DNA of 64,000 nt, taken from Phoronis australis (taxonomy: Eukaryota; Animalia; Phoronida). Position numbers and translations under genes: made by a program. Shown in pieces: positions 37,268-62,503 of the stretch (its first letter is position 1; the number at the start of each line of letters is the position of its first letter). The notes under the pieces are model-generated. The model was not told the origin of the DNA. It was given only the letters and a program-made list of their open reading frames with translations, and searched no databases. The stretch covers positions 739,565 through 803,564 of the forward strand of contig NMRA01000078.1 in the NCBI GenBank assembly GCA_002633005.1, in the 5' to 3' direction.

Positions 37268-37316
37268 CTACGCAGCATAAAAAACCCACAGCAAGCAATG
37301 TCTTCACAGGTCCCAT
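37268..37316 (-). CDS. First coding exon, signal peptide MGPVKTLLAVGFLCCV(G), of the minus-strand secreted/membrane protein gene
   Basis: AAG-ATG-G Kozak context, basic then hydrophobic peptide, consensus AG|GTAAGT donor (phase 1), CpG-enriched surroundings. Confidence 0.7.
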
Positions 37317-37700
37317 CTTCAACACGTTGTACTGACACTGCCCGCGAATTCAAAATGGCTTCGAAGTTAAGCGTTGCTCCTCCAAGAAGGTGCCAACGAC
37401 TTGGCAAGTAGGCTAATTATGCAACTCAAGTCAAAGAAAATTAGAGAAAGACGCGTAATCTCGTTGTATGGTTTGATTTCGTGAGAAGTGAAGCGTAACA
37501 ATGACATCAGCAAACCATTCAGCTTGACCGAGGGCGCGGCGTATTTAGTAGGCTACTGTCCACTTCAGTGCGTCGATGGTGAAAGTGAGACGCCTGCCGA
37601 ACAATCAATTTGGGTGTCGCGTTCCAACACAGATTATGTTGCCAAACGATGATCGCGAAGCAGAAACTATTTCCCACTTAGCCAAAACATCAAGATAAAT
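37317..37700 (-). promoter_or_regulatory. Probable 5' UTR/promoter of the minus-strand gene
   Basis: Local CpG enrichment immediately upstream of the ATG exon; YY1-like CAAAATGGC at ~37351. Inference only. Confidence 0.35.
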
Positions 37701-39163: not shown

Positions 39164-39212
39164 CTACGCAGCATAAAAAACCCACAGCAAGCAATGTCTT
39201 CACAGGTCCCAT
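39164..39212 (-). CDS. Duplicate copy of the signal-peptide exon (inside the 1.9-kb duplication)
   Basis: Same sequence as 37268..37316 at offset 1896. Confidence 0.45.
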
Positions 39213-42200
39213 CTTCAACACGTTGTACTGACACTGCCCGCGAATTCAAAATGGCTTCGAAGTTAAGCGTTGCTCCTCCAAGAAGGTGCCAACGACTTGG
39301 CAAGTAGGCTAATTATGCAACTCAAGTCAAAGAAAATTAGAGAAAGACGCGTAATCTCGTTGTATGGTTTGATTTCGTGAGAAGTGAAGCGTAACAATGA
39401 CATCAGCAAACCATTCAGCTTGACCGAGGGCGCGGCGTATTTAGTAGGCTACTGTCCACTTCAGTGCGTCGATGGTGAAAGTGAGACGCCTGCCGAACAA
39501 TCAATTTGGGTGTCGCGTTCCAACACAGATTATGTTGCCAAACGATGATCGCGAAGCAGAAACTATTTCCCACTTAGCCAAAACATCAAGATAAATAAGC
39601 GGAAGAAACTCATTTGCGTTTAATGATTCATTAACACAAGAGAAGGCTAAATGTCAAACGCATAACCGAAAGTCCTGGTTACGGAGGGCATGCGTCAAAA
39701 ACCAGAAAAGAAAGACAGAAAAACAAGAAGAGAGAAATGCAACTGAAGAGAATGTTTGTAAACCACGAGTGCTTTGATTTATCCTTCGATGTCCCAGGCC
39801 ATGACATTGTTTTTGGGGCCCCATTTTGTACTGCTAAACGCATTTGAATCGTACTCATTCGTACGTGTAGGCTATTTAAAAAAATAGTCGAGGAAATTTG
39901 TGAAGCACAGTTTTTGCACAGCATATTAATTCACTGGATTTTAAATTCAAGAGGAGAATGCTAGGGAGTGAAAAACTATATTTCACCAGGGACTAGTCTC
40001 TGACAAGAGATAATGGAGTCTTCTGTCGCTCTCCTTTTTCGTTGTTCCCGAAATAGTATATCACTAGATGAAAATTAAGAACCTGACAGATCACATCAAT
40101 TGTTGTTCATTTCCTTTTTTTGAAATTACAGATCCTTTTTGTAATTAGAGGCCCAGCCCTTGGAGAGGCCCGTTGGTGTATTGTTATCGCGGCAACCCTT
40201 TTGATAGGAGGATCCAGGGATGTCAAAGGGGTCCAGACCCTTTTTTTACCCTTGATTTTAGTGATGTCAGATCTACAGTTTTCAAATTGTTGACTTGAAC
40301 CTCCCTTTTTTAAAAATCTTTGATCCGATCCTTCGCCCCTTTAAAAATCCTGGATCCGCCCCTGTGCTTGGTGATTTTTATTAGTAGCTGCTTAAAAGGC
40401 CGCTTATGGAGGGAGGGCCTAATGATACAATCTAATACCTCAGTTTTCCTGTTTCAGTGAAATCGTACAACCTTTTATACTGAAGAAGGTCATTTCCGAC
40501 CCCTATATTCCACCGAATGCCCCTCCAGAGTCTGCGAGCATGCCATCGGAAATTCTTCATAATATTCTGTTTTGATAAACTAAATATTCGTTGGTTACTG
40601 ATTTACATGTACGAAAAACGAATGATTCATAGATGAGTTTTTGACGCTAATTTTGTAAGAATTGATGATGCTTCAGGTAACTCAATTGCAGACTGAAGGT
40701 GAGGAAATCTTTCCGCTCCCCAAATAATAAAGTACTCAAGACGTTCTTTGCTATCTAAAATAACTATCAAAGGTATGATAAAATTCGAAGATTTCTACAG
40801 GGTTTCTCAAAAATGTACTTGCAATTCAAATGACAGTAAATGCATTGTTTATTGACTTAGGAACAAGATTAGCGGTTTAAACTCACAAACAGGACAACAA
40901 AAGGCAACTAAGTTTTTAAATTAAATTTAATTCATTGCTCATCAACTTCGTACGGTTAATTATCTTTGCACTTCCTTGATGATTTTTTAGTTTCCAGTTA
41001 CGGTACATTGTGCAATAAATTTTTCGCTCTCCAGGCAAAACTGAGTCGTTTGTTTGATTATAGCACGTGATGGCTCAAGTCCGGACTTGAAAACAAGATG
41101 TGAATCGTGTTGTAAGCACGAGCGCAGAAATTAATACACCGGAAGTGAATTTTAACTCTCGGCGTTTATACTGAAGTGCGAGGACAAGTTTTTGGGATAC
41201 CCTGTGTACCATTTGTCCCCAGCCACTAGAAACTGTGCTACCCGTGTTTCAAGAAGGGATTTTGAAACAGCCACAAAAGCAATGTTCTAGAGTCTCCGGA
41301 ATCTCACTGTTTCAAAATTTACACCTTCAAAGGATGACTCTAAAACGATTTTCCCCAAACTGGACCATACCTTAGGGCCAGTGCAGATGGATAAGTGCGA
41401 GCTGAACTGCCAGTCTCGAACGAATCATCTGAGCTGACCAGCGGCTAGTCTATTTCATCCAATTTGTATTTTCAGACCTTTGGTTGGCGTGAGCTAAGAC
41501 TTGAGACAGACAGCCCAAATTCTATTCAGCTAAGCATCTGTTGGCCGGCCTCATTGTCACTCTCCATGAAATTTTGTTGAAACACGGTTGCTCAACTTCT
41601 GCCCCCCGTTAAGTTGGTGGTTATCGGAATCCGTAACTGTTGTTCCCTCCCCAAACACTCCCCCCCCCCCCTTTAATCCCATTGCATTGACAGAAACACG
41701 AAACTGTTGAAAACGTAACTTGATTTTGAAGCACCCTGTAGTGGAAACTGCAGAACTGTAATATTAATAATTATGGGTTAGAGTTTCGGGCATGTTAGGC
41801 CGCTGTTCCGCTGCCAATGTTGAATTTTTAACAGTAGCGCTTTGGGGTTTGAAAATGAACCACGCGTACCCGATGAGCCGGCACCTCAAGTCACAGGCAA
41901 TCAATGCGTACTTGAGTGAGCTATTTTTTGAATTTCAATTTTAGGTTTGGCCAACCCCAGGTCTGAAGCGTTCCCTCGATTTGCCACTGGTTACTTTGTT
42001 CTTGTTCGTAGCGGAAATCAAGTCCCATCACTGCAAGGAACATTTTAGTCGTTTCTGCAGCTAAAATATACTGATGATAGATTCCGTTCCTTGTTGTCGT
42101 TGGTCGGTGGAGACCTATTTTCCTGAATGTTTCAGCCACAGGAATTGACATATTTTCTGAAAAAGACTTAAAAGATGAAGAACCGGAACAAATACTAGAT

Positions 42201-45154
42201 ATTGCAAGTTTCCAACTATATTTGTTATCAACTAACACTAGAAACTGTTATTTAATAGGAGTTAAATCATAACCTCTGTTATATTATGGAATATAATATT
42301 TTGTGAGGCTCTTTTTCCAAGAGACCCTATAGAGACCCATGAGAAATTTGCCCCATTAATGTAAGGATTATTACGAGACCGCTTTTATGAACTCGTGTTC
42401 TGTTGCACCTTAACACTATGTCAATGCAGATTTTTTAGAATGTAAGAATTTTACAATTTATGTTGCTCTTGTATAATTTCATTTCACTAAATTTTGTATT
42501 TTCGAGTATTTCTTTACGTCCTTCCGGAGTTTTCACATCAAAATACCATAGTCTGCAGCACCCGTTATTGTCGTTCTCTGACAATTTATCGAAAGTACTA
42601 TTATTGCATGCGGTCCTTACAAAAATAAGTCACCGTCGGCGAACACTCGTTGTTGGAAACCGAAGTTATCACATTGCCATTCAGTTCAAAGTCCATTGAG
42701 GTCTTGGGTGTGGGCCGGGTATAATAATTATAAATTGACAAACAAATGTATCCCAACAGAATTTCCTTTCATTTATTGTCTCCCCTGAGGTATTTGTAAT
42801 TGCACACCTTGGAAACGTCTTATCTTCACTCGCCTGATAAAAATATCAACAAGCTGTCTTAGCCTATTTTGTGGTGACTAGCCTGTATAATTCAGTCAAA
42901 AACACGCATTTTTCAAAACATTTGTTTTGATGCAACTTACATTTTGCTGTGTAAGCACTATTATACGAATTAAAATATTTTGCCTGCCTACTGACCTGTG
43001 TATACATAAGCTCTATTTACACAACCATAATCAAATATTTTACTAGCTTACTGCCAGACGTATTGCATGAGCAAGCGTACGCACCTAACTATACTTGGTT
43101 GTGATCTCGCACTAAGATTCTGGCAGGTATGGCTTACTATTACCTCCAAAGTGCCCATGTGAGACCTGAGAGTGGGATATAAAGAATTCAAAAACACATA
43201 ATTAAGCGGAATTGACCCCTTTTAAAACTACGCTTGCTTTATTCATAACGTTATATCAATTAAAACGCTAATTATTTTCTCCCGTCTCCGGCCACTTAGC
43301 TGTGCTGGACTAGCGTCAAACAAATTTTGCACCAAGGCTATATTTTGCCATGCAGTGTTAAATGTTTGTGCAGTCCATTGACAGGGACGAACTGAGATAG
43401 CTCAACTACACCTAGTAGGCCTACCCTCAACCAGTTGCTGCAAAGCCGTTTTACTTTCAGTTTCCATTCAGAGAGACGGGATGGGCATTCGACACCATTG
43501 TCCTTTTAACAGTATTCCTGTCGCGTTGCGGCAACAATTCAGTTGCAGCAGACATCATTTTTATTAATATTGTTTATAGCACTTACTCAAGAATGAGGTT
43601 TTAAGTGTCAAAATATCCACTCAAGTCTAATTTCACATCGGGGCGATACCTGAGAGACAAATACCACCACCTGCAGGTTAGTCCGTAACATTCCACTACG
43701 CCCTTTGTATCGCATCGCCATCTATTCATAGACTCTTTAACTAAAGGTCAGTTACCCATGTCCTGCGTCTGTTTCCTGTTGAGATGTCCCAGAAAATGAC
43801 GCGTTTTTCAAGATTTGGAGACTGGTGACATGTAGTTGTGTATTATCACGTGGTTAATTTGTTAGCCTACTCGACAATTTGCAATCCACGTTGAAGAAAC
43901 CACAGTTTGATTTGCTCGCTGGTTACTAAATGATAGCGACGAACGAGGCCTAGTGCTAGGCAAACTGACGAGAGGTCAAAGATTGCACGTCGAGTGAGTG
44001 ACGCATTTGGTTCTTTCGCTTCCAGATTGATAACTTACTTCGCTTGATCATCGATAAAGCATGTACCAAAACGATTCGTGGGCTGTCTTCTGTTTATGTT
44101 ATCACTTAAATTGTACTCCTATCAGGGCATGGCTAGGAATTTTCGTAGCATCGCATAAAATGTCATTTGTCCTCAGCCAAGGCTAATGCATTGGGAAAGA
44201 CTGAAAGGCCAATCAAGGGCAACGCTAACCGAATCATGTAATCTACCTAGGCCTAGCCCTTTCATGTGTAGGGATCATTACAGCTGTAGTTTAAATGTTT
44301 CCAAGTTAATAACCTTTGGTGAGTGTGTAAACTACTGGTATGTGTTGACAGGAAACTACATGATTTGTTGGCATTTTGTCACATTTTGGGGCGTGAACTG
44401 ATGGTTAGAATGTGGAAAATCAAATAGTCAAAATTTACAGATTCATGATATATAGCAGTCATGGCTTATCTTTACTGAAAATCTTTGTGGTTTGCCACCT
44501 GCTTTTAAACAGATGGCAAACCACAAAGATATGTGGCTCTTTCGCAAAAGTCTTCTGGGTAATTTCTTGCAGTCCCTGGACTATGTTAAGTCAGATTGCT
44601 AAGAGTTAAGAATGCAACATTCAGTGAGTGGGACTAGGAAATCGAAATGCAAGTGTGGCTATATATAATACGTACAGTACTGTGGTCTAACATGCACTTT
44701 TTATTGGAGGGAGGGGTCAGGCACTTAATTAAAATGTAGTGCACGAGAGAAGCTGTTCAAATGGGTATTTTTTTGCAGTCAGATGCCTTTTGCCATTTTC
44801 AATTTCTTTCAAAAAGGTTTGTTTTATGGATAATAAATCTTCCAAATTTTGTGGTTCGTTGATTATACTATATACTATTGGGAACAGAAATACTCAACTT
44901 GAACTCAAAGTCAATGTCAACCTGCTCCAGTTACTTATTAAGAATAAAGCCACTACAGTCAAAAAGATCATTTGTTGAATTGTAATTCAATCAATAAACT
45001 TTTGTAAACGTCCTTGCATGGGTCTGTCTATGTTACATTAAGAAGGTGAATATCTTACAAAGTGGGCTCCTATTAATTATGTTGTGGCAATTATGGGATG
45101 GGGCCATTGTTCTACAAATTCCTTTTACTAGTCGCATGCATAACTTAAACAGTA

Positions 45155-45330
45155 TAGTGGCGGAATTAGGAGGGATGGGGGGGTTGACAAGGGGGCCATG
45201 GCCCTCCCTAAAATTCTCCCAGATTCCATTTGGCAGTTGGGGGGGTGCGAATATCTGACGGGCAAAATCCCAGCTAATACAGTCTGCCCTGCCCTGCCCC
45301 CCCCAACTCAAAATCATGGATCCGCCCCTG
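45155..45330. mobile_element. Short G/C-tract MITE (AGTGGCGGA..TCCGCCCCT termini); inverted relative at ~57850..58004, similar ends at ~38315..38465 and ~40210..40365
   Basis: Imperfect TIRs; 45230..45295 matches the reverse complement of ~57885..57945. Confidence 0.55.
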
Positions 45331-45477
45331 CAGTAGGGTAACCGAGGTGTGGTGTCAAATCTATTTGCTATGACACTGGTACAGCTTCTTCTCCTGTCAT
45401 GCTAACTTCACGAAATTATGTTGCTTAATTAATATGTTATGTAAATTTTATGTTTTTAGAAAGTCATAAAGAAGTAT

Positions 45478-45557
45478 TGTGCCTTGCAGGATTTGAACGG
45501 TAGTGGCTTGCAAGCTACGCGTGACCGGTGTGGTGATCTTACCACTGTACCATGAGG
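45478..45557 (-). mobile_element. Degenerate tRNA-like/SINE head
   Basis: Minus-strand A-box-like TGGTACAGTGG and B-box-like GTTCAAATCC; no clean cloverleaf. Confidence 0.35.
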
Positions 45558-46386
45558 GATGTTACAGATTGTTGTTTGCGTTTTGTTGTGTAATGATTTT
45601 GTTCTTTAGTTGTGCATGATGATAATTGCTATTGTTAGTAGATTTGTAGGTCATGGTGATAGTTGCTGTGGTATTGATGATCTGACCAAAATACATGTGT
45701 AGGTGATGGTGATAGTTGCTGTGTTTTTTATGATTTATCTACCAACCAGATAATAGATTTGTTGGTCATGGGCACTCGTTAAGACATTTGACTTGGTTGT
45801 AAGTTTTTTTTTCAGCTAAGTTTTCGTAGAGCCCAACAGCAAGGACAATAGAGGTTTCTCATTCCTCTGCAGTAACGTACGATCTGTTACTCAATAATAT
45901 ACATGTCATCAATTGTGACTCCTATTCAAAATCCTGAGTCTGCTCTTATTAAATGGATGAATTTTTATTGTCAGTGCTTAATATAACTTGGTGGGTGCTA
46001 TAATTTCCTATTGACCCGTCCTGGTAAAAAAATAATGATTTCCCTCATCCCACTGTGGCAAGGCATAGGATGGTCTTGCCTGATCTTCAATCTTAGTTGC
46101 AAGACTGTTAACCATAGGTAAGATTCCTCCCAAGAAGAACTGACAATAGGCTGTATAAGGTCAATGGTAAAGTCTTATTGAGGTCATAACCTTGCACTCA
46201 CCTGATTCTAGATTGGAGACGTGTCACAGGAGCTGGCATTGTTTTCAGTCAGTAGGCAGTTAAGGGGTAGTGCTCACGTGATGTCAACTTGCCTGACACC
46301 TATTATCATAGCTAAATGGGCATCATTGTTAAATCAGATTGGTTCTTGCATGATCTCTTTCTCGTATACATCCCTTGGGGAGTTCA

Positions 46387-46455
46387 TGGCTATGTGAATG
46401 TACCCTGGCTATGTGAATGTACCCTGGCTATGTGAATGTACCCTGGCTATGTGAA
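46387..46455. repeat. 19-bp minisatellite (TGGCTATGTGAATGTACCC)n, ~3.6 copies
   Basis: Directly visible, just upstream of the acceptor at 46476. Confidence 0.9.
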
Positions 46456-46506
46456 CGCTCCGCTGTTTTTTTGCAGATGTTTGTGGAGGTTAGTCGAGCC
46501 CTGTAG

Positions 46507-46656
46507 ATGTCAAAAATGAGTGACGGTGTTCGCATGACAAGCTTGACGAGAAGAGCACGAACACACCCTCAGGACATACTGTGGGGAGAGCCTGAAGAAG
46601 TTCAGATAGTGAAAACTATGGACAATAAACTGGGCTTCAATTTTGTAAATGTTCGC
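46507..46656 (+). CDS. Exon 1: N-terminus and start of PDZ1 (EEVQIVKTMDNKLGFNFVNVR)
   Basis: GLGF-like K..KLGF loop; donor CGC|GTAAGT. Confidence 0.8.
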
Positions 46657-49600
46657 GTAAGTTCTTCAGCCAACTATAGTCCTCTGTATTATTACGTGAT
46701 GTTATCGCCCAAATGGTTGGCAGTTGTTGCACTTGTCCTTGTTACTTAGTAAGGTTGTTAAACTGTGAGCTTTGTTATATTGCATCATAACGGATAATTC
46801 TGCTTAACATTGTGCGAGCATGGAAGCGACTTTTAGTTGATTCAATCTCGTGATAGTCTTCTCGATCATTACGGGCTCTCTATTCAAAATTCACGGGGAT
46901 AATAAATGAATTATCATCACAGCTAGGAGCATAAAATCTTTTAAGCCGTGTTTACTTACACAGTCCAACTAGAACAGTTGTATGACTAAGAGGAGGGTTC
47001 ACAAAGAGCTGCTATCACTGACCTTCCAAGCCAGTTTCACTTGTTTATTTATAAACCATTAACTTAAAATGCCAGTTTGCCTAGTTAGACAAATTGCTCA
47101 GTTATGCAAACTAAGCTAATAATTAATTGTTTGCGTAAGGTATGACAAAATACCATTAAAATGCAATATCAATAACCAAAATGTCTGTATTGGGTCATAT
47201 ATTTAATCATTTTTAACAATATGCCGATCTTACCACAGATTCATTTTTGTCCTAGTAAGTCGTTGTTTGTTGCAGGACGAGGTGGAGACGTATTCCATTG
47301 TCACTAGTATTGGCAATGAGTGTACTGTTCAACAAGGTGACTTATCGAAAGGTTGTCGCATCATTGAAGTCAACCGTCACAACATTACGCATGAAAGTGG
47401 TGAAAAAATCCACAGACTGTTGCTATCGACGACCAGCGTCGCCTTCCTATGTGTGAGGAAAGCAACTGGACTCCTACCGTTGTCAAGGATTGAAGATAGT
47501 CACGTAACCAATGTCGCCACTAACCACTTGCCACTTACTAAAACTGGAAGTAGTAGTAGCTCAAATGCCAGTGGCGATCATCTGTCAAATATTACAGGTG
47601 TGATCAAGGACACTAATAATCATGTACAGGTTACCAAAAAGACGAGCAACAGCAGTTCCAATGTCAGCATTGGTCGTCAGTCAGGTATGGAAATTAGGCC
47701 CCTCGTCAAAAATGGCCAAGAACCCCTTCCAACAAAAAGAAGTAGTAGTGGCTCAAACGCTAGTGCTGATCATTTGTGGAGTACTGAAAGTGCCGTCAGT
47801 GTAAACCTGGAGAGTGTATCAGCCCAGGAGAGTGGTGGTCAGCTTGGTTCATCCAGGATCAGACAGGTGGCAGCAGCGGACAATAATTTAATAGGTTACG
47901 TCCTCAAGAGCCCCCACCGCGTCAGATGGCATGAAAGAATGCTAAAACTGGAAATAAAAAATGTTCCCGGCGCCAAACTGCTGGAGAAGAAATGCAAGAG
48001 AAGCAAAGCTGACATCTACTTATTGGTCACTTTGGTTGAGTCTAGCAGTCCTGCTTATGGTGTTTTGAAAGCCGGAGACTGGATTAGATCAGTGAACGGT
48101 GTTCCAATTCACGATGAAGAAACGGTAAATAATGCAATTGCTTAAAGTTTATCGCGGACGGTATTACTTGTAAAGTTGGTTCCTTCTGATCGGTGTGTTA
48201 AGAACATCGCTCTGAGCCCAACAGTACTATAAATTGCAAATGTAATGAACTAGTAGGTTAAATGGCTTGCATTTGTCTATGTCACCATTAGAATCACCTT
48301 TTAAGTGAAACAGCTGCAAAAACAATGGTGTTCTATTGAAGCCCCTATTCAATTCAGCCTTTTGTTATTTGTGCTGGATTGTCCTAATGATGTATGGTAA
48401 CATGGCACGAAAAGACAATTTCACATATTGTTTGATGGGCCTATATTCGATTGTTTTGCTAAGGCTTTGCTAGGACTATAGTTAGCCCAATGCATCTAAA
48501 ATAATTAAATTCTATTCAAGATAGGCTTTAAAGCATCAGAGAAACTGACTGATTTAGACCATTTACTGCTATGAAATTGGTCTCTGCTTAATCATGAGAT
48601 CGTGTACGCGTGAACTTGGAATTAAATATTCATTAAAGTAATCAGATGCTAGTTTTTCTTCAATGTAAAGAAACTTTCAAATTATTGGCGCCACGATCAT
48701 CTGTTTTTTTCCTTTACTGGAACTTGTGTCTCACAATCGAGGAATATGTGAATGGTTAATCAATAATTGTTTGGTGAATAAGATTGTCAAACAGAACAAT
48801 AAATGTCGATAAAAATTACTTTATTTTGTTAAAATGCGATTTGCTTTAGTGCAGTACAAATTTTTTCAACGTGAACAAGATTGTTTGAGTGACCTTGCCA
48901 TATTTCTTAGGGTATTCAAGTTTACGCATACATTATCTTGAGATTAATAAGCAAAATTCAAAGTCAAAGCACGATAGATTAAAGACGCTATGTTTCATTA
49001 ACACTGTGACCGTAATTCTTTAAATTTGTAGCAATTGCTGCTTAGTGACTTCCTGGAGAATTGTGTGTACAAGTATAATCAGGAAACAAAATAATTGGAA
49101 ATAAATTGCGGTTTTAAAAAAACTGTGCAACTAATGCTCTTAAAAACGTGTAAACATATAAAAAGCAAGTAATTCCAAATATTACGCAATTATTATTTGA
49201 TAGTTAAAATCAGTAAATAATAAAAACTGTGCATTGTTTCTTTTGGGTAACAACAGTGCTCATTTACGTAAAAATAGTCCCACAAAACGAGACTTTGCGA
49301 GATTGCAATGGTAACTGGTTCTCCGATGGAGGACCGCGGTTGTTCATAAATTAGTACATCATTTGCACATTCACAATTTAATGAGACTATGTGTCTTTAA
49401 CTTGGATCTTTATCAAATTGGTTTAAGAATTCCCTTGCCTCAATACCGACTTCTTTCTGCCACTTAAATTGAGAGAGTGGTTGAGGTTGACTCGAAGCAT
49501 CCAACCTAATTGGGAAGGGTAGGACAACGCTATTAAAACTTGCAGTGTTTTGACACCATTTGTACTTGATGTTGGTTGAGCCGTGTACATAGAGAGAAAA

Positions 49601-52600
49601 ACATGGATATTCTTAATAAATAGCCGTGAACGCAAGCAGCTCATGTGACGCCATATTGTGTGGAGGTTCACTGTAAACGAACCAATATGGCTGCAGGTGA
49701 ATAGGGACCTTGGTGTATTAAATGCAAAATACTGACAAACAGAAATACGCTAAGCATTATTAGCGGGATACTTAAATTTAAGACTTAAGATTTTCAGATG
49801 AATGTTCTGATATCAACGTAAAAATTCCGAATATATAAGCACTTTGGTACATATTTCATCAAAATCGACCCACTGATTTCAAACTTAGTTCCCTATATCA
49901 TACCAAGTTAAACAGTACATAGCACTCAGCTCCAAACTACAAAATGGCCGCCCGGCTATACGTATACAAAATCATGTGATGGCCAATCTCTGCCTCTATA
50001 TCTATGGTTTGAGTAATCAGTGAGGAAATGAAATTCACTCTTTATAGTGATATGGAGGGTTTGAGACCTGTTTTGTCTGGTTGAATAATCTGGTTTATAA
50101 TTTACATTTCAGGTACTAGGTGAATAAAGTGTCCCAAGAAGCTTTATTGTTGACATCCAGTCACCATGTTGTTTACATACTTTTTATTTTTTCAAGAATG
50201 TCTTCATGACAAAACAAAACATTGACTGACTTTGTTGGAATCGTTTTAACCGAACTAAGTTATTATAAACAGTAAACGATTGTTTTCAGGCACGAAAATT
50301 TCAAGGCATTATAGAGAATTGCCAGGAACCCACAATAACAATGCACGTCCAACGACCGTTTGATATCCTCGAAGCTTCTTCATCCTCGAGTGTCACTCAG
50401 GTGCCCTCTGGTGTCACCCAGGTGACTTCCATTTCTGATATCCGCCACGTGCCTTCAACTTGTGTTGAGAGCATACCTTCGACTTCTGCTAATAACTTGT
50501 TTGAAGTACCGAAAACAGTGTCTACTGATCCTCAACTGCAAGCTGCTTTTAACTCAATTGTATCAAAGGCATTAAACAAACCAACAAATTACTTTCCGCA
50601 GAGCAAGGTTATTGTGATTGGTTCGAACAGTGAGATGGTGGCCAAGTACGTGCTGGGTTGTGATTCGCAGCCCACGTCACATTTGCTGCGCAACGTCCAT
50701 AAACGCGTGGTTCGTGTGAATTGCAAAGATAGGGAAGTATTAATCACACCTCCTGACGGATATACTTCAACAGTGGATGAATGTCTTGCCCACCAGGTGA
50801 TTAAAGAGGTCTTTGAGAGCACGACACTTGATGAATGTGCAAGAGTTCAGATAAGTAAAAGCCTGATGCACAACAACATTCAAGACGTGCGAGGCATCGA
50901 CGGCCAGTTACTAGCGCGGCTCTTGGCTGATGGTGGTGTGGTCAACAGTGCACTCTTTGACCTGGAAATCACCTGTTTGAAGGACACGCCAGTAGCTGTA
51001 GCTTGCAGGCCCATCCTCTTCTCACACCTCGCACAGTTTGTGTTGACATTCAATGTGGATGAACTTCTTGAAAACGGAGAATACGTGATGAGTCGTCTGT
51101 TCACGAACTTAACAGAAATTCGTTTTTTCACAGGAAAGGACACCCCAGTGTTGCTTGTTTGTTGTGGAGCCATGCGTAGTGATGTCGATGTCTGCGGAAT
51201 ATTGGACTCGTACAGTCTACGCTCTCTCTTCTCCTCTCACTTAGTGTACAACAGGTCATCCAAGTGCCCTGTATTCCATCTGTGCATGTCACATGGCAGG
51301 TCATGTGAGAGGTCTGGTGACACTGATAATTTAAAGCAGGCCATCATAAACTATGCTGTACGTTCTAGCATGGCCCCGCAGAAGTACCCATTGGCCAGTT
51401 TTGCCTTCTTAAAGCAGATTCAGAAGATGCGTTCCCAAAAACACTTCATCATAGCTGCTAGCACTGCTCGCTGTGTGCTGGAGGATATTTCCGGACCCAT
51501 CAATTCAGATTATCAACACCAGGTGCTGTCCTGTCTTCACTCAATGGGCGAGATTGTTTACAAAGGTAGGGAATTGTTTCATCAGACATGCCCTGCTATG
51601 GTGATAACCTGGCTCATAGCCTACATTCCTCTAAACAGCCATCCCAACTTAAAAAAAAAAAAAATTCCCAAACTTTGTCTTTGAATTTTAACTTAATTAC
51701 TGTATATTGGCCCCTATGTATAGTCCAAATAACATTTTATTTCTGATCAGTCTAAATGTTTTCCAATTGTTTTGCATTAGGTGTCCATTATACACACCAG
51801 GAAGTGGGTGCATTATATTTTTGTATTGTTTTATCCTTTAAGATGCATAGTTGTGAATATGCGAATGAAGTCATGACTAATACAAACAACCGCTGTCCTC
51901 CAGTATGTCGGAAACCATCCGAGAACCAGTTACCGTAATTACAGTCTCGTTAAATCTTGTTTTGCAAGATTATTTTTTGTAAATTAGTATGGTAAGATTG
52001 CTTTGTTACCCTAATGAAATGAGGTACAGTTTTTATCTGTGTCTATTTCAATGTTTGTTTCTTTTCCCGACTCTTCATGTACTCACAGTTCTTCAGGAAG
52101 TCACTAGGTGGCGCTTGCTACACATTTAAATATTCACGTTTTTTATGAGACGACGTCTTTAAGTTGAAAGGTAGTTCTCATCTACTTTCAAATTGAAGCT
52201 TGCAAACATGTCCTGCAGAAGATACTATGCTCAACTTTTCACCCCCATACGGTCAGCCATGTTGTATGTTGCTGCATGTTTGTATAGATGCAGCACCCCG
52301 TACATTCAGAAGGTCCTGAAGATCTGAATATACGGATAATGTATCGCGATTCTGTGAAAGCACAGGTTCCTACTTCTAGAGGACATGCTCCAGCCTGAAG
52401 GTGGTGTATTTATGAACTGATTAAACGCATTGTATCGTTGTAGATCGGTCAGACTCGTGCATCTTTATAAACACGGACGTACTGTTCGCATGTGCAAAGC
52501 AATTGTTCATGGTACCAGCCAAAGTGGATCAAACACGGAGGTGGCGTAGCGATTGGGAGAAACTGGAACAATGTGGCCTGGCTTCGAAAGACTTCCTCTT

Positions 52601-55600
52601 GGCCCCCAGAGTCACTGATGGTGATGAGGTCAAAGGTCAACACGTGCTGGCTTGCTTCCAGTGGTATGGACTGGTATTTACGTTCGGCGATGAGTTCCTC
52701 CTGCCTCATTTCATGCCGAAGTTGTGTAATCGTGAGCTGAGCCGTACGACATCACTAGACTCTCTAATTAGGACGGGTCGTGAACTCTACATCCAGTTCA
52801 CAGAGCCGCCACATTTAACTGTGATCTACGAACTGTACTCGCGTTGTTCCAAGGAGTGTGCCAGCAGAGGGGGCAAAAGCGATGTTGTGGATAGGTACAG
52901 TGCAGTCTTCAGGCAAGAGGTACTGGAATATTTGATGCGATATACCCCTATGTCCAGCATGATAAAGGTGATAGTCAGGTGAGCAATTAGTTAAAACTTC
53001 ATATTAAATTATATTTAGCAGCTAACAAATTATTTATTTTGCAACTGAAGCTTATAACATCTTTTCGTTACCGTGACAGCTTTTGAATTCCGTTACCAAC
53101 AAAAACATCAAAAACATGTATTTACACAGACCGTTTTCGATTGCATAATGATTACAAATAAATTGGGATGTACAATCGTACTGCCTTAAATGACAAGTGA
53201 ACTGTAGGTGGCGCTGAACATTGTCCATCATGTACTCAGGCATTTGCCATTTCAGGTCTGGGGATGGCGTCCTGAATCCATTTCTCTTGCAACTGCAGGA
53301 TATTGTCAGAGATGTCCTGAAGCACTCATCATACAGCTGTGTTATTGGCCCAGCTTGTCCAGCCAGTGAATGTGTTGAACTGGGCAGCCTGCATGTCCTT
53401 GACCTTGCAGCTCAACCGCCAGTACATTGTGGGATTGAACAGCTGGACACTCATCCTGATGTCTGCAGCTGGTTACCTTCAGAGGTATGTCCGTGTGCAG
53501 CATGCTGTGTGGCCATTTGCAGTAATGCAGGGTCATTTTGCCCCCATAAATTGAGCCTGTTCATGACAATCCTCTCGTTGGTGTCAAGGCAAAAGTTACT
53601 TATTATTGTGTGTATTAAAGATGCATGATCTCATTACATTGTGAATTTGCAAATGAAGTACTAATTTATAAATGACTCTGGGTCCTCCAGTGTGCTGGAA
53701 ATCATCTGAGAGCCTGTTACCATTACAATCTTGCAAAAGTCTCGTTTTGTGCGACTATTTTTATGTAACTGAGCATGGTAATATTTCATTGTTACCCAAA
53801 TGAAACAAGGCATAGTTTTTGCTTATTTCACTATCAAAGACCGCTTGCGTAATATTTAGAATTACTAGTAAGGGTTCACACTTGTTTTTAATTGTATCTG
53901 ATGCGTTTTCTTTAAAGCTGCAAATTGTTTCAACCTTTTCCTGATTATACTTGTACACACAGTTCTCCTGGAAGTCACTAGGTGGCTCTTGCTACAAATT
54001 TAAATATTCATGGTTTAATGAGACATAGCATCTTGAATGTGTATGCAATAGTTCTGTGCCTACTACTACTTCTGGTGCTGCAGAAAACTGGCTACTTGTT
54101 CACATCAGTGGATAAAGATTGCTGATTGTGAATTCATAATTCAGACCACCAACTGTGCACAACACCTTACCAATCAGGATAATGGTTTTCCGGATCGATA
54201 CCAAGAGTGCCTGTCCGTGCCACCCTGCAACCCAACCCACAAATCCAGTATATGCACCTAGAAATGATAGCACACAGCCAATAGGGCCATCCAGGATTAC
54301 GTGGCAGTAGAACTCTCTTTTGTCCCAGAGATAAGAAAGTGCGTGATCTAGTTTTGGAAATCAGGCACATTTTCGTGTCTCATTGATGTCGAGAAGGGGA
54401 AGAATTTCAGGTCACGCATCCGTCATTTTTGTTTGTCCAGTTTATCAAACTTTCTCACTTTGGAGATGCAACCCACAACACAGCAGTAATACTTTGTTGG
54501 CATTGGAAGGACAAATAGAGTAATGCAACCGAGAAAAACTTGTAAAGAATCAGACAATAACAAATAACATGTGAAATCACACAGTAAAATCAAATTACCC
54601 ATCTGAGACAATGTCTGAGGGCCATGGTAACTGTCCAACTGGGTAGTTCATCTATCTTAGACTATGTCTAAGGGCCATGGTAACTATCCAACTGGGTAGT
54701 ACATCTATCTGAGACAATATCTGAGGGGCCATGCTTACTATCCAACTGAGTTGCACATTTGTCATAAGTTGTTTCATGTGAAAGCCTCTTGAAAAAGTCG
54801 TTTGCAGCAAGGTCAATTGGTTTGGCCTTCCAGTGATATTTTATTATAGTGACAAGATTGTGAAAATTGCTTTATCGAGACACTTTATCACCATGGTGAT
54901 TCTTTTACTGTTTATCTTTAATCAGGTGCGTAACCCTGTCGTTAGGGTGTTTGCCTCTGCACATGCCCGGAAACCTGTTTCGATGGAAACCCGACTGAAT
55001 AATATCCCAGAAGGCCTTGCTCAGGTCATCACCAATTTGTATAATATTCCCATGACGTTGGGTAGAGACTGGACTCATTTAGCTGGTAAGACAACTCATC
55101 AAAGTTAACTTTGTTATTCAGTTTGATTCCAATTTACAATGTTCTCTGCTAGATATATTTCTGACTGCCAGGTGTGAATGTATACTCATCCTCCAGGGCT
55201 CATATTACAGACCTCAACATTTTGTCTGGTTGAACCACCTCAGACGTCTTTTTATTTTAATTAAAGCTAAAGGTTTTGGCCTCCAAACGAGTACGCAGTA
55301 TATCTTTGTTTTAAGTCACTTTGAATTAGTGTTCCAAATTTTTGCATTGTTATAAAACTTTGAGCATACTATCGTGGAAGAATTAATAGACTGGCAGCCG
55401 CTTTCATTAATAGAAAGAGTAGTTAGCAACTGCCCCTAAGGAACCCCAAAGAATGCCAAAGGAACCCCCCCCCCCCCCCCCCCAAATGAGCCTTGTGGCT
55501 TGTGAAGGGTTTACCTACTAATGCTTTGAACTAGATTGAATTGTTTAATTGATTCACAACCCATGCCAAATGAGGTCGTATGGAGCTGGCAGGGCATTGT

Positions 55601-56904
55601 TTAACTTCCAACATCCATGGGACAGGCATAAGCACGTCGCATGGTTATCACCTTTGGGGCGCTACCATTGTTTTCTTTTTTGGATATTAATTATTTAACA
55701 ATACATGGATATCTTACCTTGGGCGTACATCAGCTGTTTACCGATAAATGCTTTTCATTATAATCTTTATTATACCAAGTGAACTACGGATGCACCAATC
55801 CATGGATCTCTATGCAACTAGCTTGCGACCTAGTTTCCCATTGGTAATTGCCTGAAGTTGATAGTTGTCATTTTGCCTATTGGGGATTATGGTAATATGT
55901 CTGACATCAGTTTTGAAGGAGAGTAGTAATTGCTAATCATGCCATCTGTTCATTGCCCACAATTTCTCAAAATTTTTCTTAGGTGGTGGCCGTGGTATTG
56001 TAGTTGAACATGGAAACTATTAATTTGGTAATACATGTCTTTCGTGGAAAAAATGAGGAGTAAAATAAAACATTTGTCGGTCACATTGTGTCCTAATTTG
56101 GTGAGATTTTACTGGCGTGTATTTCAAATTCACTTGGTGGCTCCAAGGGTTCTACCAGTAAACATGCAGGCAGTGCTTGATACTGGCAAAAATGTCCGCT
56201 CGAAAATACGAGAGATGGCATATTTGCCACTCGTATTTCCGGATTTGGGCTCATAAAAAGCGGCGTCAGAAAAAAACGCCGAACATCTGCTCAGCACCTG
56301 TATTAGTGATAGAAGTAGGATCAATTTACTGTTCTATTTTACTTCTTCTACTCATATTTTTTAGCGTATACTTACTTATGTATTGATGACATGGGTTCTG
56401 TATCATGTGAAGGGTACCATATCATGTGTAGGGTCCATGCTGACAGAATTTCTAATTGCTCCGCATCTACTCATTAGCACCACATGTTGCTGTTTGTGCA
56501 CTTGAGAAATGTACGTACTCAGTGAAGTACCCATAGGCAGACTTAGGAGTTGCACAAATGACCCTGCCAGCTTCTGGGCATCATTAATAACAAACGACAC
56601 CTAGTTGCTGTTTTTAAGGCTGACATGAAGGTTTTTCCTTTCTGGAATAATGGTCCTTCTTCTCCTCATGACATTGTAAGTTCCTGCATTCTCACTTGTT
56701 TCATTCTCTGCAGCAAAACTTGATCTGACCATCACCGCAATAGCCAGGCTGAAGATGGTTGATGACCCCTGCAGGGCCATCATTCTCAACTGGGCTACAA
56801 CTGGCGCTACCGTAAAGAATCTTTTGGATGTAAGCGAGTCCTTAGAACGTCTGGATGTGTGTGAGGATGTGATGGAGTGGATAAACTCTCAACAGCAACA
56901 ATGA
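46507..56904 (+). CDS. 7-exon gene, 1129 aa: PDZ-PDZ-degenerate Roc-COR-Death domain (Roco-like) protein
   Basis: Exons of 150+849+1276+535+229+160+191 = 3390 nt, all GT-AG, phases 0,0,1,2,0,1 match. Domain motifs run continuously across junctions (PDZ1 exons 1/2, PDZ2 exons 2/3, COR exons 3/4/5, Death domain exons 6/7). Confidence 0.85.
47276..48124 (+). CDS. Exon 2: rest of PDZ1, Ser-rich linker, most of PDZ2
   Basis: TTGCAG acceptor; GDLSKGCRIIEVNRHNI and SSPAYGVLKAGDWIRSVNGVPI PDZ signatures; donor ACG|GTAAAT. Confidence 0.85.
50290..51565 (+). CDS. Exon 3: end of PDZ2, degenerate Roc domain, start of COR
   Basis: TTTTCAG acceptor; ARKFQGIIENCQEPTITMHVQR completes PDZ2; KVIVIG, FSHLAQFVLTFNV, PVLLV; COR-like LSCLHSMGEIVY; donor AAG|GTAGG. 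Confidence 0.85.
52444..52978 (+). CDS. Exon 4: COR domain
   Basis: GTTGTAG acceptor (phase 1); CIFINTDVLF..WEKLEQCGL..FQWYGLV..FLLPHFMP; donor CAG|GTGAG. Confidence 0.85.
53256..53484 (+). CDS. Exon 5: C-terminal COR region with Cys/His cluster
   Basis: TTTCAG acceptor (phase 2); donor GAG|GTATGT. Confidence 0.8.
54598..54750. repeat. ~52-bp intronic tandem repeat x3
   Basis: ATCTGAGACAATGTCTGAGGGCCATGGTAACTGTCCAACTGGGTAG variants. Confidence 0.8.
54926..55085 (+). CDS. Exon 6: start of Death domain (..ITNLYNIPMTLGRDWTHLA)
   Basis: TTTAATCAG acceptor, CTG|GTAAG donor; G-x-D-W-x-x-L-A helix-2 motif. Confidence 0.85.
56714..56904 (+). CDS. Exon 7 (terminal): rest of Death domain, AKLDLTITAIARLKMVDDPCRAIILNWATTGATVKNLLDVSESLERLDVCEDVMEWINSQQQQ*
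   Basis: CTCTGCAG acceptor (phase 1); P..IL.W..GATV..L...LER.DV Death-domain pattern; TGA at 56902..56904. Absent from the supplied ORF track. Confidence 0.85.
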
Positions 56905-59244
56905 CTTGGCTGTGTCAGTATCAGTGTTAAGAGTGCTGCATAGCCTCAGTCTGCCATTTGGAACTCAATATTGTCACGCAGGGAAATCTTATTGTGAACA
57001 GGTGTCCTGGGTTTTGAGAACCAGTTTGATGACAGTTATTCAGTAGAGAAGACTGGTTCTCATATTGCAGGACCCAGTAGGTGACTATTTCGGCAAAAAC
57101 TGTAGGAATGTTTCCCCTCGTTCGCAGCATAGTATGTGTCATGTAGCCAACGTCTGCTTGCGCTTGACGAAATTCGGAATAATTCAAAACCACTGTACCT
57201 CAGAAATGAAGAAATGATTATGTTGGCAATATTTCAGTTAGTGGAGACATTGTATTGCTAACAATGGAAAAGATGTATTGCAGCTCTGCACTATATTGTA
57301 TTGTAGTGAACCTCTGCTTTTGCTTGAATGTGTTGTTTATTGAACAAAATGGTGGACGCTATGTTGATGCAGTGCAAACACAATGTCCTAACAAGAGACA
57401 GTAAAACTGTGAGGCACATCCTGTTCTGGACTTTCTACCTTAAAGAGTTCTAATTCAATTGTAGAAACAGTCTTTTAGAGGTTGGTTTGTACCTATCACT
57501 AACGGGCTCATTCTGAGCGCCACCTACAGCGTAATTCACAAATATTTTGTGAACCCTTTGACAAATTGATGGTGAACTATACTGTAGGAAGTGACGTCCA
57601 GATCATAGAGTCTGTCAAGATGAGAGTCATTATGTCATCGACTCTTGATGTATATTACACCTGCTGCTGAATCTGACAGGAAAACTTATATCTCATCTTT
57701 GGCTACGAGGGATTCTTTGTCTCATAACAGCAACAAACCTTTTCTGTTATTTGTCTGACAACAGCTCATTCCGTTTTGGCTCACCTAACAATCTATTGGC
57801 CAAAACCACTGCTATCCGTTGTGGGCGCAGTAATACATGAATGGCCCATAGGGACGAATACAGAATTTTTTGGTTAGGGGGGAGCAGGGCAGAGTATTAG
57901 CCAGATTTTGCCCATCAGACATTTGCACCCCCGAATTGCCCAGTGGAGGGGGAGGGGGCATGGCCCCCTTGGCCCTCCCCCCCCCCCCCTCAAATCTGCC
58001 ACTGGCCTAACACGTAGTGAGGTTGAGGGAATCTGAGGCTCATTTCATGAAATGTAACTGAACACTAAAATTTGGTTTTGTGCTCCGCACAACTGTTCCT
58101 GAAAAACAATTAAAAAATCTTGCTTGTGCTAAGTGTCTGAGAGTATCATTATTTTGACTTAACTCATGTAAAAACACTTCAGTTAAATTTTACAACATAA
58201 AAAAAAATATTATTATTGTTTGTGGAACGATACATCTGGAAAATCTTCCTCTTTTTGTCATAGGTCATTCTAATCTGTGGGCTTTATTCATTGATTGTGA
58301 TTCATTGATTGTGAATAGGGAGTTAAAAACCAAATTTCTGACTTAAGACTCAAATTACTTCTTATGAAGCGGATCTTTGGAGTGAGCTTTTCGACAGTGC
58401 TGTATATGATATCTGATATTTTTGTAAGCTAGACGTATTTATTTTTATGCAAACTATTTATTGTTTAAATGTCAGTGCTAATTTCCATTCACCTGTACAC
58501 TGTAAAACAAACCAGATTAATTTTCAACAATTTTCTATCTATTTTTATAGTCCAAAGCAATAAATAAATGGGTTAAATTTTTGCCGTCACAACCGTACGC
58601 TTCCAACAAGTCTTGAACTCCCTCTCTGACTCCTTAAATCCTTTATTTTGTACACTCCCGAAAAATTGTAATAATTGTGAACAGTCCCTTACTCGACCCA
58701 CGGTGGAGCTAGTCCATTTCTCGTTCAGTTGACGATTGTAACTTTTTTGAAACCATGTTGTTTACAGGACATCACGTGTACTCCCATCTTACTAAGTATC
58801 TTCTTTTTCGACCACGAATCCCATTGTTCTTCCTCGTCCCCCTCCGATATTATATCTAATATTGGCATGGTACTTATTGAGAGCTTTTATTTAAAGATGT
58901 TCATGACGTTGGTCAGTTTGATAGCAGTTAAAATTGTGTTATTCAAATATTCATGTTGGCGTTTTTTGCCTTCAAAATTGCCAAAGGTGGGTGGACTGTT
59001 GCGGTTTAAACATATCAGTTGTTGTTACAACGAAATAGGATTTGTTTTTGTTCAACCAAATAAAGGTAACTTAAGAAAGTGGCGAGATACTGAATTTTTC
59101 AGGTTTAGATGTGCAGTATAATCCTCATTTCTTAATATTATGCAACTGTCTGCTTATGTACTAGCTATGTGAATTATTCAATTATTTTGCATGATCTCTA
59201 ACACATTAGTGGTATTATTACTTTAATAAAAACAACAACCATTT

Positions 59245-59294
59245 TTAACCGTGACATGTTTCGTGGGAGTCATCCCACATCTTCAGACATTTAT
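59245..59294 (-). ncRNA. Minimal type I hammerhead ribozyme (Penelope-like-element type)
   Basis: Minus strand: AUAAAUGU-CUGAAGA-U-GUGGGA-UGAC-UCCCAC-GAAA-CAUG-UC-ACGGUUAA. Intact core, perfect 6-bp stem II, palindromic ACAUGU minimal stem III, GUC cleavage triplet. Confidence 0.8.
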
Positions 59295-59490
59295 TCTCAA
59301 ATAACCAGCTCAGAGCTATTTACAAAGAAAATTCAGTACGAGTTGGTACAAAAACATGAATGACAACAGAAGTGACAAGGATTTACATTTTACTTATGAA
59401 TGTTAAAGATTTAACTGGTGACTGAGCCATTCCTGCTTTTGTTGTGACTCTGTTCTGATTTTCGTGTTGTATACAGCCGGATGTTTGAGA

Positions 59491-59540
59491 TTAAACGTCT
59501 GAAGATTCGGGATGGTTCTGATGAAACATGTCACAATTAA
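59491..59540 (+). ncRNA. Minimal hammerhead ribozyme, diverged inverted partner
   Basis: UUAAACGU-CUGAAGA-U-UCGGGA-UGG-UUCUGA-U-GAAA-CAUG-UC-ACAAUUAA; stem II has G-U pairs and stem I is weaker. Confidence 0.65.
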
Positions 59541-60215
59541 ATAAGGTTGTGCCTTTATATCACTTGACACATTGTATAAAGTAGTCTCTTGTTCAGAACC
59601 ATTTGTGCAAATAATTGGCTTTTCGTGTCATTTTGTGGGACTGCAGGTTATTCAAGTGTTAGTGAGAATTACTTGACAACGTTACTTATAGCGAAATCAT
59701 TCTATTGTATAGCAACTGTGATATCTGGAAATGTTAACGTTGTGTTGAAGATATTGTATAAGTACATTTTGCTACTAAATCAAACATTTTATATTAATGG
59801 TTTTGGTCAGAGCTAGTGTTTTTAGACACAGCCACATACGTTGTTTGACTAGAGTTTTAGAAACTTTTTTTAAAAAATGCCAGTGCTGTTTGTAGAGTTT
59901 TTAGACATAGCTAGTCATTGTAGCTTGTCTCAAGTCTTAGGAAGTGTTAAATAATATCAGTGCTGAATCTTATTTCGTTTGTATGGATAGTAAGCCCGCA
60001 GCCATGGTTACGTATTAGTGACACCATGTATTGTAATTGACCTATCGCCAGGACTTTGAGTGACTGCTTAAGTAACCAATTAGAACGCAGCATTCNCATT
60101 TCTTAATATTATGCAACTGTCTGCTTATGTACTAGCTATGTGAATTATTCAATTATTTTGCATGATCTCTAACACATTAGTGGTATTATTACTTTAATAA
60201 AAACAACAACCATTT

Positions 60216-60265
60216 TTAACCGTGACATGTTTCGTGGGAGTCATCCCACATCTTCAGACATTTAT
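60216..60265 (-). ncRNA. Duplicate of the minus-strand hammerhead
   Basis: Same sequence as 59245..59294. Confidence 0.7.
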
Positions 60266-60460
60266 TCTCAAATAACCAGCTCAGAGCTATTTACAAAGAA
60301 AATTCAGCACCAGTTGGTACAAAAACATGAATGACACAGAAGTGACAAGGATTTACATTTTACTTATGAATGTTAAAGATTTAACTGGTGACTGAGCCAT
60401 TCCTGCTTTTGTTGTAACTCTGTTCTGATTTTCGTGTTGTATACAGCCGGATGTTTGAGA

Positions 60461-60510
60461 TTAAACGTCTGAAGATTCGGGATGGTTCTGATGAAACATT
60501 TCACAATTAA
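60461..60510 (+). ncRNA. Duplicate of the plus-strand hammerhead, stem III disrupted (GAAACATTTC)
   Basis: G>T change relative to GAAACATGTC at 59523..59532. Confidence 0.45.
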
Positions 60511-62503
60511 AAAAGGTTGTGCATTTATATCACTTGACAAATTGTATAAAGTAGTCTCTTGTTCAGAAACATGTGTGCAAATAATCGGCTTTTCGTGTCA
60601 TTTTGTGGAACTGCAGGTTATTCAAGTGTTAGTGAGAATTACTTGACAGCGTTACTTATAGCGAAATCATTCTATTGTATTGCAACTGTGATATCTGGAA
60701 ATGTTAACGTTGTGTTGAAGATATTGTATAAGTATATTTTGCTACTAAATCAAAGATTTTTATATTAATGGTTTTGGTCAGAGCTAGTGTTTTTAGACAC
60801 AGCCACATACGTTGTTTGACTAGAGTTTTAGAAACTTTTTTAAAAAATGCCAGCGCTGTTGGTAGAGTTTTTAGACAGCTAGTCATTGTAGCCTGTCTCA
60901 AGTCTTAGGAACTGTTAAATAATATCAGTGCTGAATCTTATTTCGTTTGTATGGATAGTAAGCCCACAGCCATGGTTACGTATTAGTGACACCATGTATT
61001 GTAATTGACCTGTCGCCAGGACTTTGAGTGACTGCTTAAGTAACCAATTAGAACGCAGCATTCTTGACACACCTTCGTTTCCAAGCCACCATTTTACCCG
61101 ACAAACAACACGTTGCCACTTATTGTTTGTTTGTCGACATTTCGCAAGTGGGTGAGCCTTGCGATAGGTCAATTGGGGATCCCTGTAAACTGGGTGGGCT
61201 CATTTATCAATGGGCGTTTGTGGATTAGCCCTTGGGCTTCTATACGAAATGTAGCAATGTAAGGGGCAGTATCTTATGAAGATCAAGAACATATTGTTAA
61301 CCATGCTTCCCCTGGGGGGGGCCAGATTAGTGCATGCGTGTCAGTGTACAGCTACCAACCGACAGAGTATAATTTTGAATAACTGTTGGCATTCAGTGCA
61401 TTGCTGGAAGACCTTGAACATGAAAAGGTCAATTTTGATGAGATTTATCGTAATTGAATAGCTTCCATTTATTCTCAGTCGTATCTTCTGGTACAGTATG
61501 GAATTTGGTTATCAATAGAATTTATGATGCAACCAACTACTGTGGTCATTTGCCGAGTAGGGCTGCAAGGTACATATTTATATTCGCTGTGTGTAAATGT
61601 TCAACACCACCTATAGTTTACGTGTAACTGGAGATTTTGAAACGATGGAACTTTCCAGCTGTCACGGTGCTGTAACATTACGATCGTATGGTGGGATGTT
61701 CAAATGATTCTCGTACAAGTACATATAAGAAAGAACTTAATATACGTCTTCATTTGCTCTGCCCATCTTTATTTCCATAATTTTAATTGGGTTGTCGCTT
61801 TTGTACTAAATTTGAATGTTTCGTGTTTCTGTGGTAATTTTTTACACGTGTGTAATGAATGCATCGGAATGGTGCGAAGTGCCTTCAGAGTATTTCACTG
61901 GGAATGCACACAAATCCAACCAACCACTCCCAAGTTTATGCCCAGCTGTGGGCCGTGTAGTCGTTTGGTCTAGTCGATTGAAATGCTGCGTTTACGAGAC
62001 ATTGTGATGTCCGAAAAATGTAATTTATTATTTTTTGTAATTTGACACCAGGTGCCTGACTGTGTGATCCAGGCACACTAGTTTACCAGGTGGCGAGACT
62101 GTCTCATCCACGATTTGGCTCTGAACTCACATAGAACTGCCACGACATTTAGCAATTCTGTTAGAAATAGTTTGGCAGTGACAATTGACAAGGGAAGCAA
62201 AAGAATTTGTAAAAAGGAGAAGTAACTTCTTGGTATTGCTGTTGATGTCTGATAATACAATGCGGCATACTTTGTTCATGCAAAAGTACCATGTGGAGAT
62301 AATCTGATAATCTAAGTAAAAATACAGGCTAGTGTTGGCTGTCAGAGTAAATGTTTATTTTACATAACTTAGAGAGGGAAGTCATGATCAAGCCATTTGG
62401 TGCCACTTTTGTGAATGGTGCATTTGTGGGAGGGTTTACACCTACTACAAACCTGCTTTCTGTCAGTTATAAGGTTTCATTTAGGTCACTAAAGGTCACT
62501 AAA

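Follow-up and report, generated by a model that had tools for sequence, protein, structure and literature searches.

Can a Roco protein that has lost its GTP switch still serve as a signalling scaffold? This question is raised by a gene of the phoronid Phoronis australis, located on the + strand at 46507-56904 of a 64,000-nucleotide stretch of contig NMRA01000078.1, hereafter the window, to which all positions refer. An earlier note, made from the sequence alone, had described the gene product as a Roco protein of unusual build, with two PDZ domains, a Roc-like region, a COR domain and, at its C-terminus, a death domain, and had considered it a lineage-specific product of domain shuffling. The gene is real and expressed, and its product is Roco-derived, yet it is not a canonical Roco GTPase. 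The architecture PDZ-PDZ-Roc-COR-Death is close to certain, and the Roc domain is very probably a pseudo-GTPase, the nucleotide-binding motifs being lost in every family member found.

The gene consists of seven coding exons separated by GT..AG introns with matching phases, and encodes 1129 amino acids. Upon splice-site testing the frame was open throughout with one, terminal stop, so that the phase-consistent model of the earlier note was confirmed; the four COR motifs quoted there (among them IFINTDVL, WEKLEQCG and FLLPHF) are all present in the frame. The ATG at 46507 as start codon is supported by an in-frame TAG immediately 5' of it and by the N-terminal register, which is shared with the Lingula anatina protein XP_013402390.2 (the first tryptophan is residue 26 in both). 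Reads of one DNA run and of three RNA runs, the latter from a single study, were aligned on 44500-58300. In the exon bins, RNA reads were of a single orientation (+ strand sense) in all three RNA runs. Depth was analysed in 17 of 30 bins, with repeat-bearing bins, including that of exon 5, excluded. The exon-normalised summed depth was 9.5-18 in ten of the eleven coding bins and 29 in the last, and 0.7 and 1.4 in two intron bins. The exons encoding PDZ, Roc, COR and death domains are expressed alike, at a low level that is similar in all three runs. Eight coding variants were obtained from the RNA reads, four synonymous and four nonsynonymous, which are too few for a selection test.

Few relatives of the protein were found. 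A phmmer search with the Roc part against 1.84 billion representatives returned four hits, two of which, P0001 and P0002, were dropped as bacterial proteins with Ig/cadherin-like repeats that match over 50 residues rich in Cys and Thr. P0003 is the above-mentioned protein of L. anatina (XP_013402390.2, 1427 amino acids, 'uncharacterized protein'); a second Lingula record, XP_013396460.1, is 98% identical (LOC106168013 and LOC106163420). The Lingula protein carries two PDZ matches and one Death match in Pfam and is collinear with the Phoronis model from the N-terminus to the end (identity of 25% in PDZ1, 28% in PDZ2, 25% in Roc, 21% in COR-A, 29% in COR-B and 39% in Death); the alignment over residues 423-1128 of the model has 25% identity (E 1.6e-45 in a 7-protein database). 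It shares with the Phoronis protein the five-domain order, the N-terminal register, the lost G motifs and a Cys/His cluster, and differs in its greater length, longer linkers and a PDZ2 that keeps the KLGF loop. It was deposited without domain interpretation, and the identifier LOC106168013 was found in no paper in the literature search. Two unnamed ENA frames (P0004 and P0007) start with the last PDZ strand and stop at the very residue that closes exon 3; they probably come from a third species in which the introns are placed alike. Identity between all members over the Roc exon is low (about 21-25%). Word-based homologue searches with exon 3 yielded nothing and those with the Lingula Roc-COR region only that region itself (one of 5642 candidates); the metagenome and genome contigs searched contained no relative. 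With the same order of domains in Lingula, at about 25% identity, and a third sequence bounded like exon 3, the architecture appears common to distant animals. The PDZ-PDZ-Roc-COR-Death order is likely old and not a one-off shuffle, contrary to the lineage-specific origin that had been assumed.

Among the seven exon frames, Pfam matches above the cut-off were obtained for PDZ2 in exon 2 (E 2.6e-7) and for the death domain in exon 7 (E 3.3e-5). No Pfam match was obtained for PDZ1, nor for Roc or COR in any of the frames. The earlier note had expected two PDZ domains, COR, Death and a weak Roc from such a search; PDZ2 and Death were recovered, while PDZ1, COR and Roc fell below detection. PDZ1 was recognised through eight weak hits in a sequence search of the PDB (E 0.1-1.3), all presumably PDZ entries, and through its likeness to the two Lingula PDZ domains (z 8.8-9.5 with 300 shuffles; 8.8 for Lingula PDZ2). 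It retains a KLGF-type loop, i.e. a carboxylate-binding loop of the GLGF type. Linkers rich in serine and threonine (28-32% of residues) lie beside the tandem PDZs. A similar Pro...Trp extension opens both PDZs in both species (46576-46590 and 47900-47930; residues 20-30 and 380-392 of the Lingula protein), a hint that the PDZ pair arose by duplication of one module. The solved death domain closest in sequence to that of Lingula is the one of p75NTR (E 4e-4), not of MyD88 or FADD; a PDB search with the exon-7 death domain gave weak mixed hits only. Kinase, ankyrin and leucine-rich repeat (LRR) domains had no Pfam match in the model exons or in the Lingula protein, and no kinase-coding frame was seen upstream within the window, which agrees with the kinase-less build without ankyrins or LRRs described before.

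Profile, language-model and fold comparisons were used for the Roc and COR parts. The top matches in the ESM Atlas were Roc/COR-A clusters for exon 3 (0.90) and COR-A/COR-B clusters for exon 4 (0.98, of low recognition value). True Roco loci were fetched by their switch-II pattern; the length filter left 71 of 120 loci from prokaryotes and 14 of 51 from metagenomes, and all 11 fetched loci checked by Pfam carry Roc. With a hidden Markov model (HMM) of eukaryote-like Rocos, the Lingula protein scored 21.6 and the Phoronis model 9.0 bits (best of 402 decoys, 7.1), and with a combined Roco HMM the Lingula protein scored 18.1 and the Phoronis model and P0004 7.7 bits each (best decoy, 4.4). A profile of three family members compared by hhalign reached 94.0% against the eukaryote-like, 96.4% against all and 38.5% against the bacterial Rocos, the best of 30 column shuffles reaching 1.2%. 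Analysed by region, the C-terminal half of Roc was clearly separated from the shuffles, COR-A and COR-B were marginal (none of 40 shuffles reached their level, though by a narrow gap), and the N-terminal half of Roc did no better than chance (11 of 40 shuffles reached its level). PDB sequence searches with exon 3, exon 4, the Lingula protein or alignment A2 gave no Roco match. AlphaFold guided by a 41-row alignment yielded a model with a predicted local distance difference test (pLDDT) value of 84 and a predicted template modelling score of 0.82. The top ten Foldseek matches of this model were all Roco proteins, as were the five best in VIA (LRRK2: Z 16.1, root-mean-square deviation 4.1, 238 residues aligned), in line with the structural similarity to Roc and COR that had been anticipated. 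Taken with hhalign and the Atlas, the predicted fold, which is alignment-guided and partly circular, points to a Roc-type G domain directly followed by COR, the arrangement that characterises Roco proteins.

Roc domains normally carry all five G motifs, of which DxxG is the most conserved (PMC6337361). The P-loop GxxxxGK[ST] is absent from all five family sequences. The glycine after the first strand is retained, and the Gly-Lys-Thr positions are occupied by M-V-A, S-V-A and Q-V-V in the three lineages, with valine at the lysine position in all of them. At G3, the aspartate of DxxG is lost and the glycine is replaced by aspartate in all three lineages, the 36 Roco rows of this comparison carrying DxxG by selection. 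The guanine motif G4 of the [NT][KH]xD type is also lost in all three family members. In G2 (switch I) the aligned position is not threonine, but this half of Roc matches the profile no better than chance. The predicted model keeps the G-domain fold, with strand 1 and helix 1 joined by two residues only (a shortened P-loop) and a folded insert of about 45 residues between G1 and G2. The shared valine and aspartate replacements argue for a single, old loss of the switch motifs in an ancestor. A G-domain fold with the G motifs missing, to judge from sequence and predicted model, would place the domain among the class I pseudoGTPases, and the Phoronis Roc would neither bind nor hydrolyse GTP. The term 'Roc-like region' of the earlier note was right as to Roc-COR ancestry (94-96% in hhalign) but understated the change, the region being not merely divergent. 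A switch of a new sort, in which Roc binds nucleotide or another small ligand via a rebuilt pocket, might be read from the invariance of the first P-loop glycine, the valine and the G3 aspartate in the three lineages, from the conserved insert between G1 and G2 and from one p190RhoGAP pseudoGTPase that still binds GTP (PMC10211241). It is very unlikely, however, because G1, G3 and G4 are lost together, the phosphate loop is down to two residues in the predicted model and an aspartate in place of the G3 glycine would repel phosphate.

Several observations weigh against the family and its domains as interpreted here. With the eukaryote-like Roco HMM, P0004 (3.4 bits) remained under the top decoy (7.1), and a bacterial-only Roco HMM gave no separation of the family from decoys. 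Exon 3 alone reached a pLDDT of 33 in single-sequence AlphaFold, and 36 of the 41 rows of the fold alignment are true Rocos, which makes the fold match partly circular. The G1 register differs between two alignments. The binding loop of Phoronis PDZ2 is degenerate or deleted, though it is intact in Lingula PDZ2, and three lineages were found in total. Furthermore, no exon junction, including 48124->50290, was present among the 15 of 203 read joints listed, all 15 of which are repeat-derived. The lack of a read across this junction among the listed joints and the size and repeat content of the intron (2.2 kb, repeat-rich) could be explained by a PDZ gene and a Roc-COR-Death gene wrongly joined in the gene model. 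Such a false fusion is barely credible in view of the even RNA depth along the gene, of the Lingula records, which hold all domains in one chain, and of the position of the intron itself: it divides PDZ2, whose last helix and strand share an exon with the pseudo-Roc, and the junction is thereby supported indirectly.

In a tree of 39 rows, from which the near-duplicates P0005 and P0007 were left out, the three family members grouped with 100/100 support on long branches. A very large distance (a branch of more than 4 changes per column) separates the family from all active Rocos fetched; the tree contained no DAPK1 or named animal Roco, and the parent subfamily is not placed by it. There is no sign of expansion, considering the near-identity of the two Lingula records and a tblastn search of the 1129-residue model against the window, which revealed no paralogue. 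Pseudoenzymes often regulate their active kin (PMC10211241), and the protein might associate through COR with a Roco of its own animal that is still active (DAPK1, LRRK or some other protein of the Roc-COR-Death type), either inhibiting it or changing its location, while the PDZs would direct the complex to its target. LRRK and DAPK1 genes are found in protostomes and deuterostomes (PMC4104024), and COR-B, the dimer-forming half in the Chlorobium Roco (PMC6337361), is the part retained at 29% identity to Lingula. The great distance from active Rocos makes a shared interface doubtful, however, and with no paralogue in the window a regulator of this kind is rather unlikely.

The reading preferred here is a nucleotide-independent signalling scaffold, docked to the membrane via its PDZ domains and presenting death domains; the chances for and against it are evenly balanced. 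The PDZs would dock on C-terminal tails of receptor or junction proteins at the membrane. There would be no GTP cycle and the Roc-COR unit would be switch-less, so that activity would be governed by PDZ-dependent localisation and clustering instead. A standing COR dimer would be the simplest expectation, given that the Chlorobium Roco is a dimer without nucleotide and becomes monomeric on GTP (PMC6337361). The paired death domains would then engage a death-domain receptor or adaptor. Both p75NTR and Fas end in PDZ-binding tails, from which the idea of a two-point binding to a death-domain receptor is derived. Motif-less G domains are known as binding modules in AAGAB (PMC12490416) and in CENP-M and p190RhoGAP (PMC10211241). 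The adaptor or scaffold function proposed in the earlier note is supported to this extent. The protein might, as an alternative, be a scaffold for junctions, polarity or trafficking that takes no part in cell death or immunity, in which the death domain would be a plain interaction module as it is in ankyrins and UNC5. Tandem PDZs with Ser/Thr-rich linkers, the lack of a repeat sensor domain and of signs of expansion, the similar low expression in all three runs and p75NTR as the nearest solved death domain would fit such a role. The low identity between members is more like that of fast-evolving immune or death adaptors, and Roc-COR with Death, CARD or TIR recurs among invertebrate candidate immune genes (PMC4104024; PMC5094078), which renders a scaffold restricted to junctions, polarity or trafficking unlikely.

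Among known proteins, DAPK1 resembles the putative scaffold in that its Roc-COR unit precedes a C-terminal death domain (PMC6337361), the Phoronis Pfam Death match likewise lying after COR. Compared by description, it differs in that the Phoronis protein has two PDZs instead of kinase and ankyrin repeats and has lost the G motifs. LRRK1/LRRK2, MFHAS1 and the prokaryotic LRR-Roc-COR proteins have a Roc-COR unit that is alike by profile and fold, whereas the Phoronis protein is devoid of LRR, kinase, WD40, P-loop, DxxG and G4. Kinase-less or shuffled Roc-COR units with death-fold or TIR domains are also found in Trichoplax (with Death, CARD, TPR or LRR; PMC4104024) and in the anemone (NG1 and NG3, with TIR or Death; PMC5094078). 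These genes were found via a recognisable Roc, however, and the Trichoplax set is expanded (at least 17 genes), in contrast to Phoronis. The class I pseudoGTPases AAGAB, CENP-M and the p190RhoGAP middle domains share with the Phoronis Roc the fold of a G domain devoid of G motifs, serving or predicted to serve as binding module, but are derived from GTPase families other than Roc. In the available parts of three pseudoGTPase texts (PMC12490416, PMC10211241 and PMC5593906) no Roc or LRRK case is named. The word PDZ does not occur in the main text of PMC4104024, PMC5094078, PMC6337361 and PMC11378527; in PMC8195603 and PMC9573974 it is used in other contexts. No PDZ-Roc-COR-Death or pseudo-Roc protein and, as previously stated, no characterised Roco with N-terminal tandem PDZs was found in the literature searched, with most subscription journals outside the search, as were three sources that could bear on the novelty: Marin's 2008 papers and, in PMC11378527, the supplements and the figure of about forty domain combinations in animals (Figure 2).

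Features of the gene are listed in Table 1. A donor at 44624 and low, sense-only RNA in 44500-44960 possibly indicate a further 5' UTR (untranslated region) exon. None of the other long open reading frames listed in the window looked like a further gene.

Table 1. Features of the Phoronis australis PDZ-PDZ-Roc-COR-Death gene (positions in the window; aa, amino acids of the 1129-residue model)
Feature	Position	Strand	Description
Probable non-coding 5' exon	45883..46117	+	Sense-only RNA in bin 45883-46343 in 3/3 runs; donor GTAAG at 46118; borders inferred, left end not fixed
First coding exon	46477..46656	+	Acceptor 46475-46476, ATG 46507; aa 1-50, start of PDZ1 including KLGF loop
Exon 2	47276..48124	+	aa 51-333; remainder of PDZ1 (to ~47470), Ser/Thr-rich linker, most of PDZ2 (from ~47900)
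Exon 3	50290..51565	+	aa 334-759; end of PDZ2 (last helix and strand, to ~50358), linker, putative pseudo-Roc (~50596-51360), first half of COR-A
Degenerate G1/P-loop site	50620..50643	+	aa 444-451; first Gly retained, Met-Val-Ala at Gly-Lys-Thr positions
Degenerate G3 site	50971..50988	+	aa 561-566; Cys in place of Asp, Asp in place of Gly (this second change common to the three family members)
Degenerate G4 site	51157..51174	+	aa 623-628
Exon 4	52444..52978	+	aa 759-937; end of COR-A, most of COR-B; z 10 against Lingula
Exon 5	53256..53484	+	aa 937-1013; end of COR-B with Cys/His cluster common to Lingula (possible metal site)
Exon 6	54926..55085	+	aa 1014-1067; linker, first part of death domain
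Last coding exon	56714..56904	+	aa 1067-1129 and stop; remainder of death domain; Pfam Death
3' UTR	56905..57868	+	Exon-level sense RNA in 57408-57868; overlaps repeat at ~57012-57062; right end not fixed, with the first polyA-like hexamer at 58109

High-copy repeats lie in and around the gene (45156-45330, 48978-49400, 53615-54038, 54300-54500 and 57868-58003), with contig depth in the thousands and RNA reads on both strands; two pairs of them are mutually inverted. Elsewhere in the window, two near-identical tandem duplications (37087-40886 and 59121-61063; 1.9 kb at 97.6% and 0.97 kb at 97.1%), both with one N at the join, are probably two haplotypes set end to end by the assembly. Both copies of the latter region hold a 315-base element (59235-59550 and 60206-60520) with about 68% match to its own reverse complement, resembling a miniature inverted-repeat transposable element. 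At 1734-2279, a unit of about 63 bases is repeated in tandem, and open frames run through this repeat on either strand. Outside the window, four metagenome contigs (L121, L139, L145 and L150) contain related Roc-COR frames of 584-605 amino acids. In these, G3 is preceded by a long acidic stretch and COR-B is followed by a Cys cluster, while the same frame has no P-loop; they resemble an expanded family of animal Rocos located on host DNA. On contig L122 (576-5981, - strand), a frame of 1802 amino acids combines Myotubularin, LRR, Roc, COR and kinase, the IMLRK-type build described from Entamoeba (PMC4104024).

The protein suggests a direct link from PDZ to death domain, which was not found in the literature searched. 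With a little less than even confidence, an ancient and overlooked animal family ranging from sponges to brachiopods is proposed, made up of Roco pseudo-GTPases in which PDZ-guided clustering would replace the GTP switch and receptor tails would be coupled to death-domain signalling. It might constitute the first branch of pseudo-GTPases in the LRRK2/DAPK1 family, one that escapes Pfam because its Roc is motif-less, and surveys based on Roc profiles (e.g. PMC11378527) would miss this branch. Whether Roc-COR acts as GTP switch, dimerisation device or scaffold in LRRK2 and DAPK1 is still debated (PMC6337361). A natural motif-less Roc-COR kept across distant animals would isolate the GTP-independent part of the Roc-COR function and make it testable.

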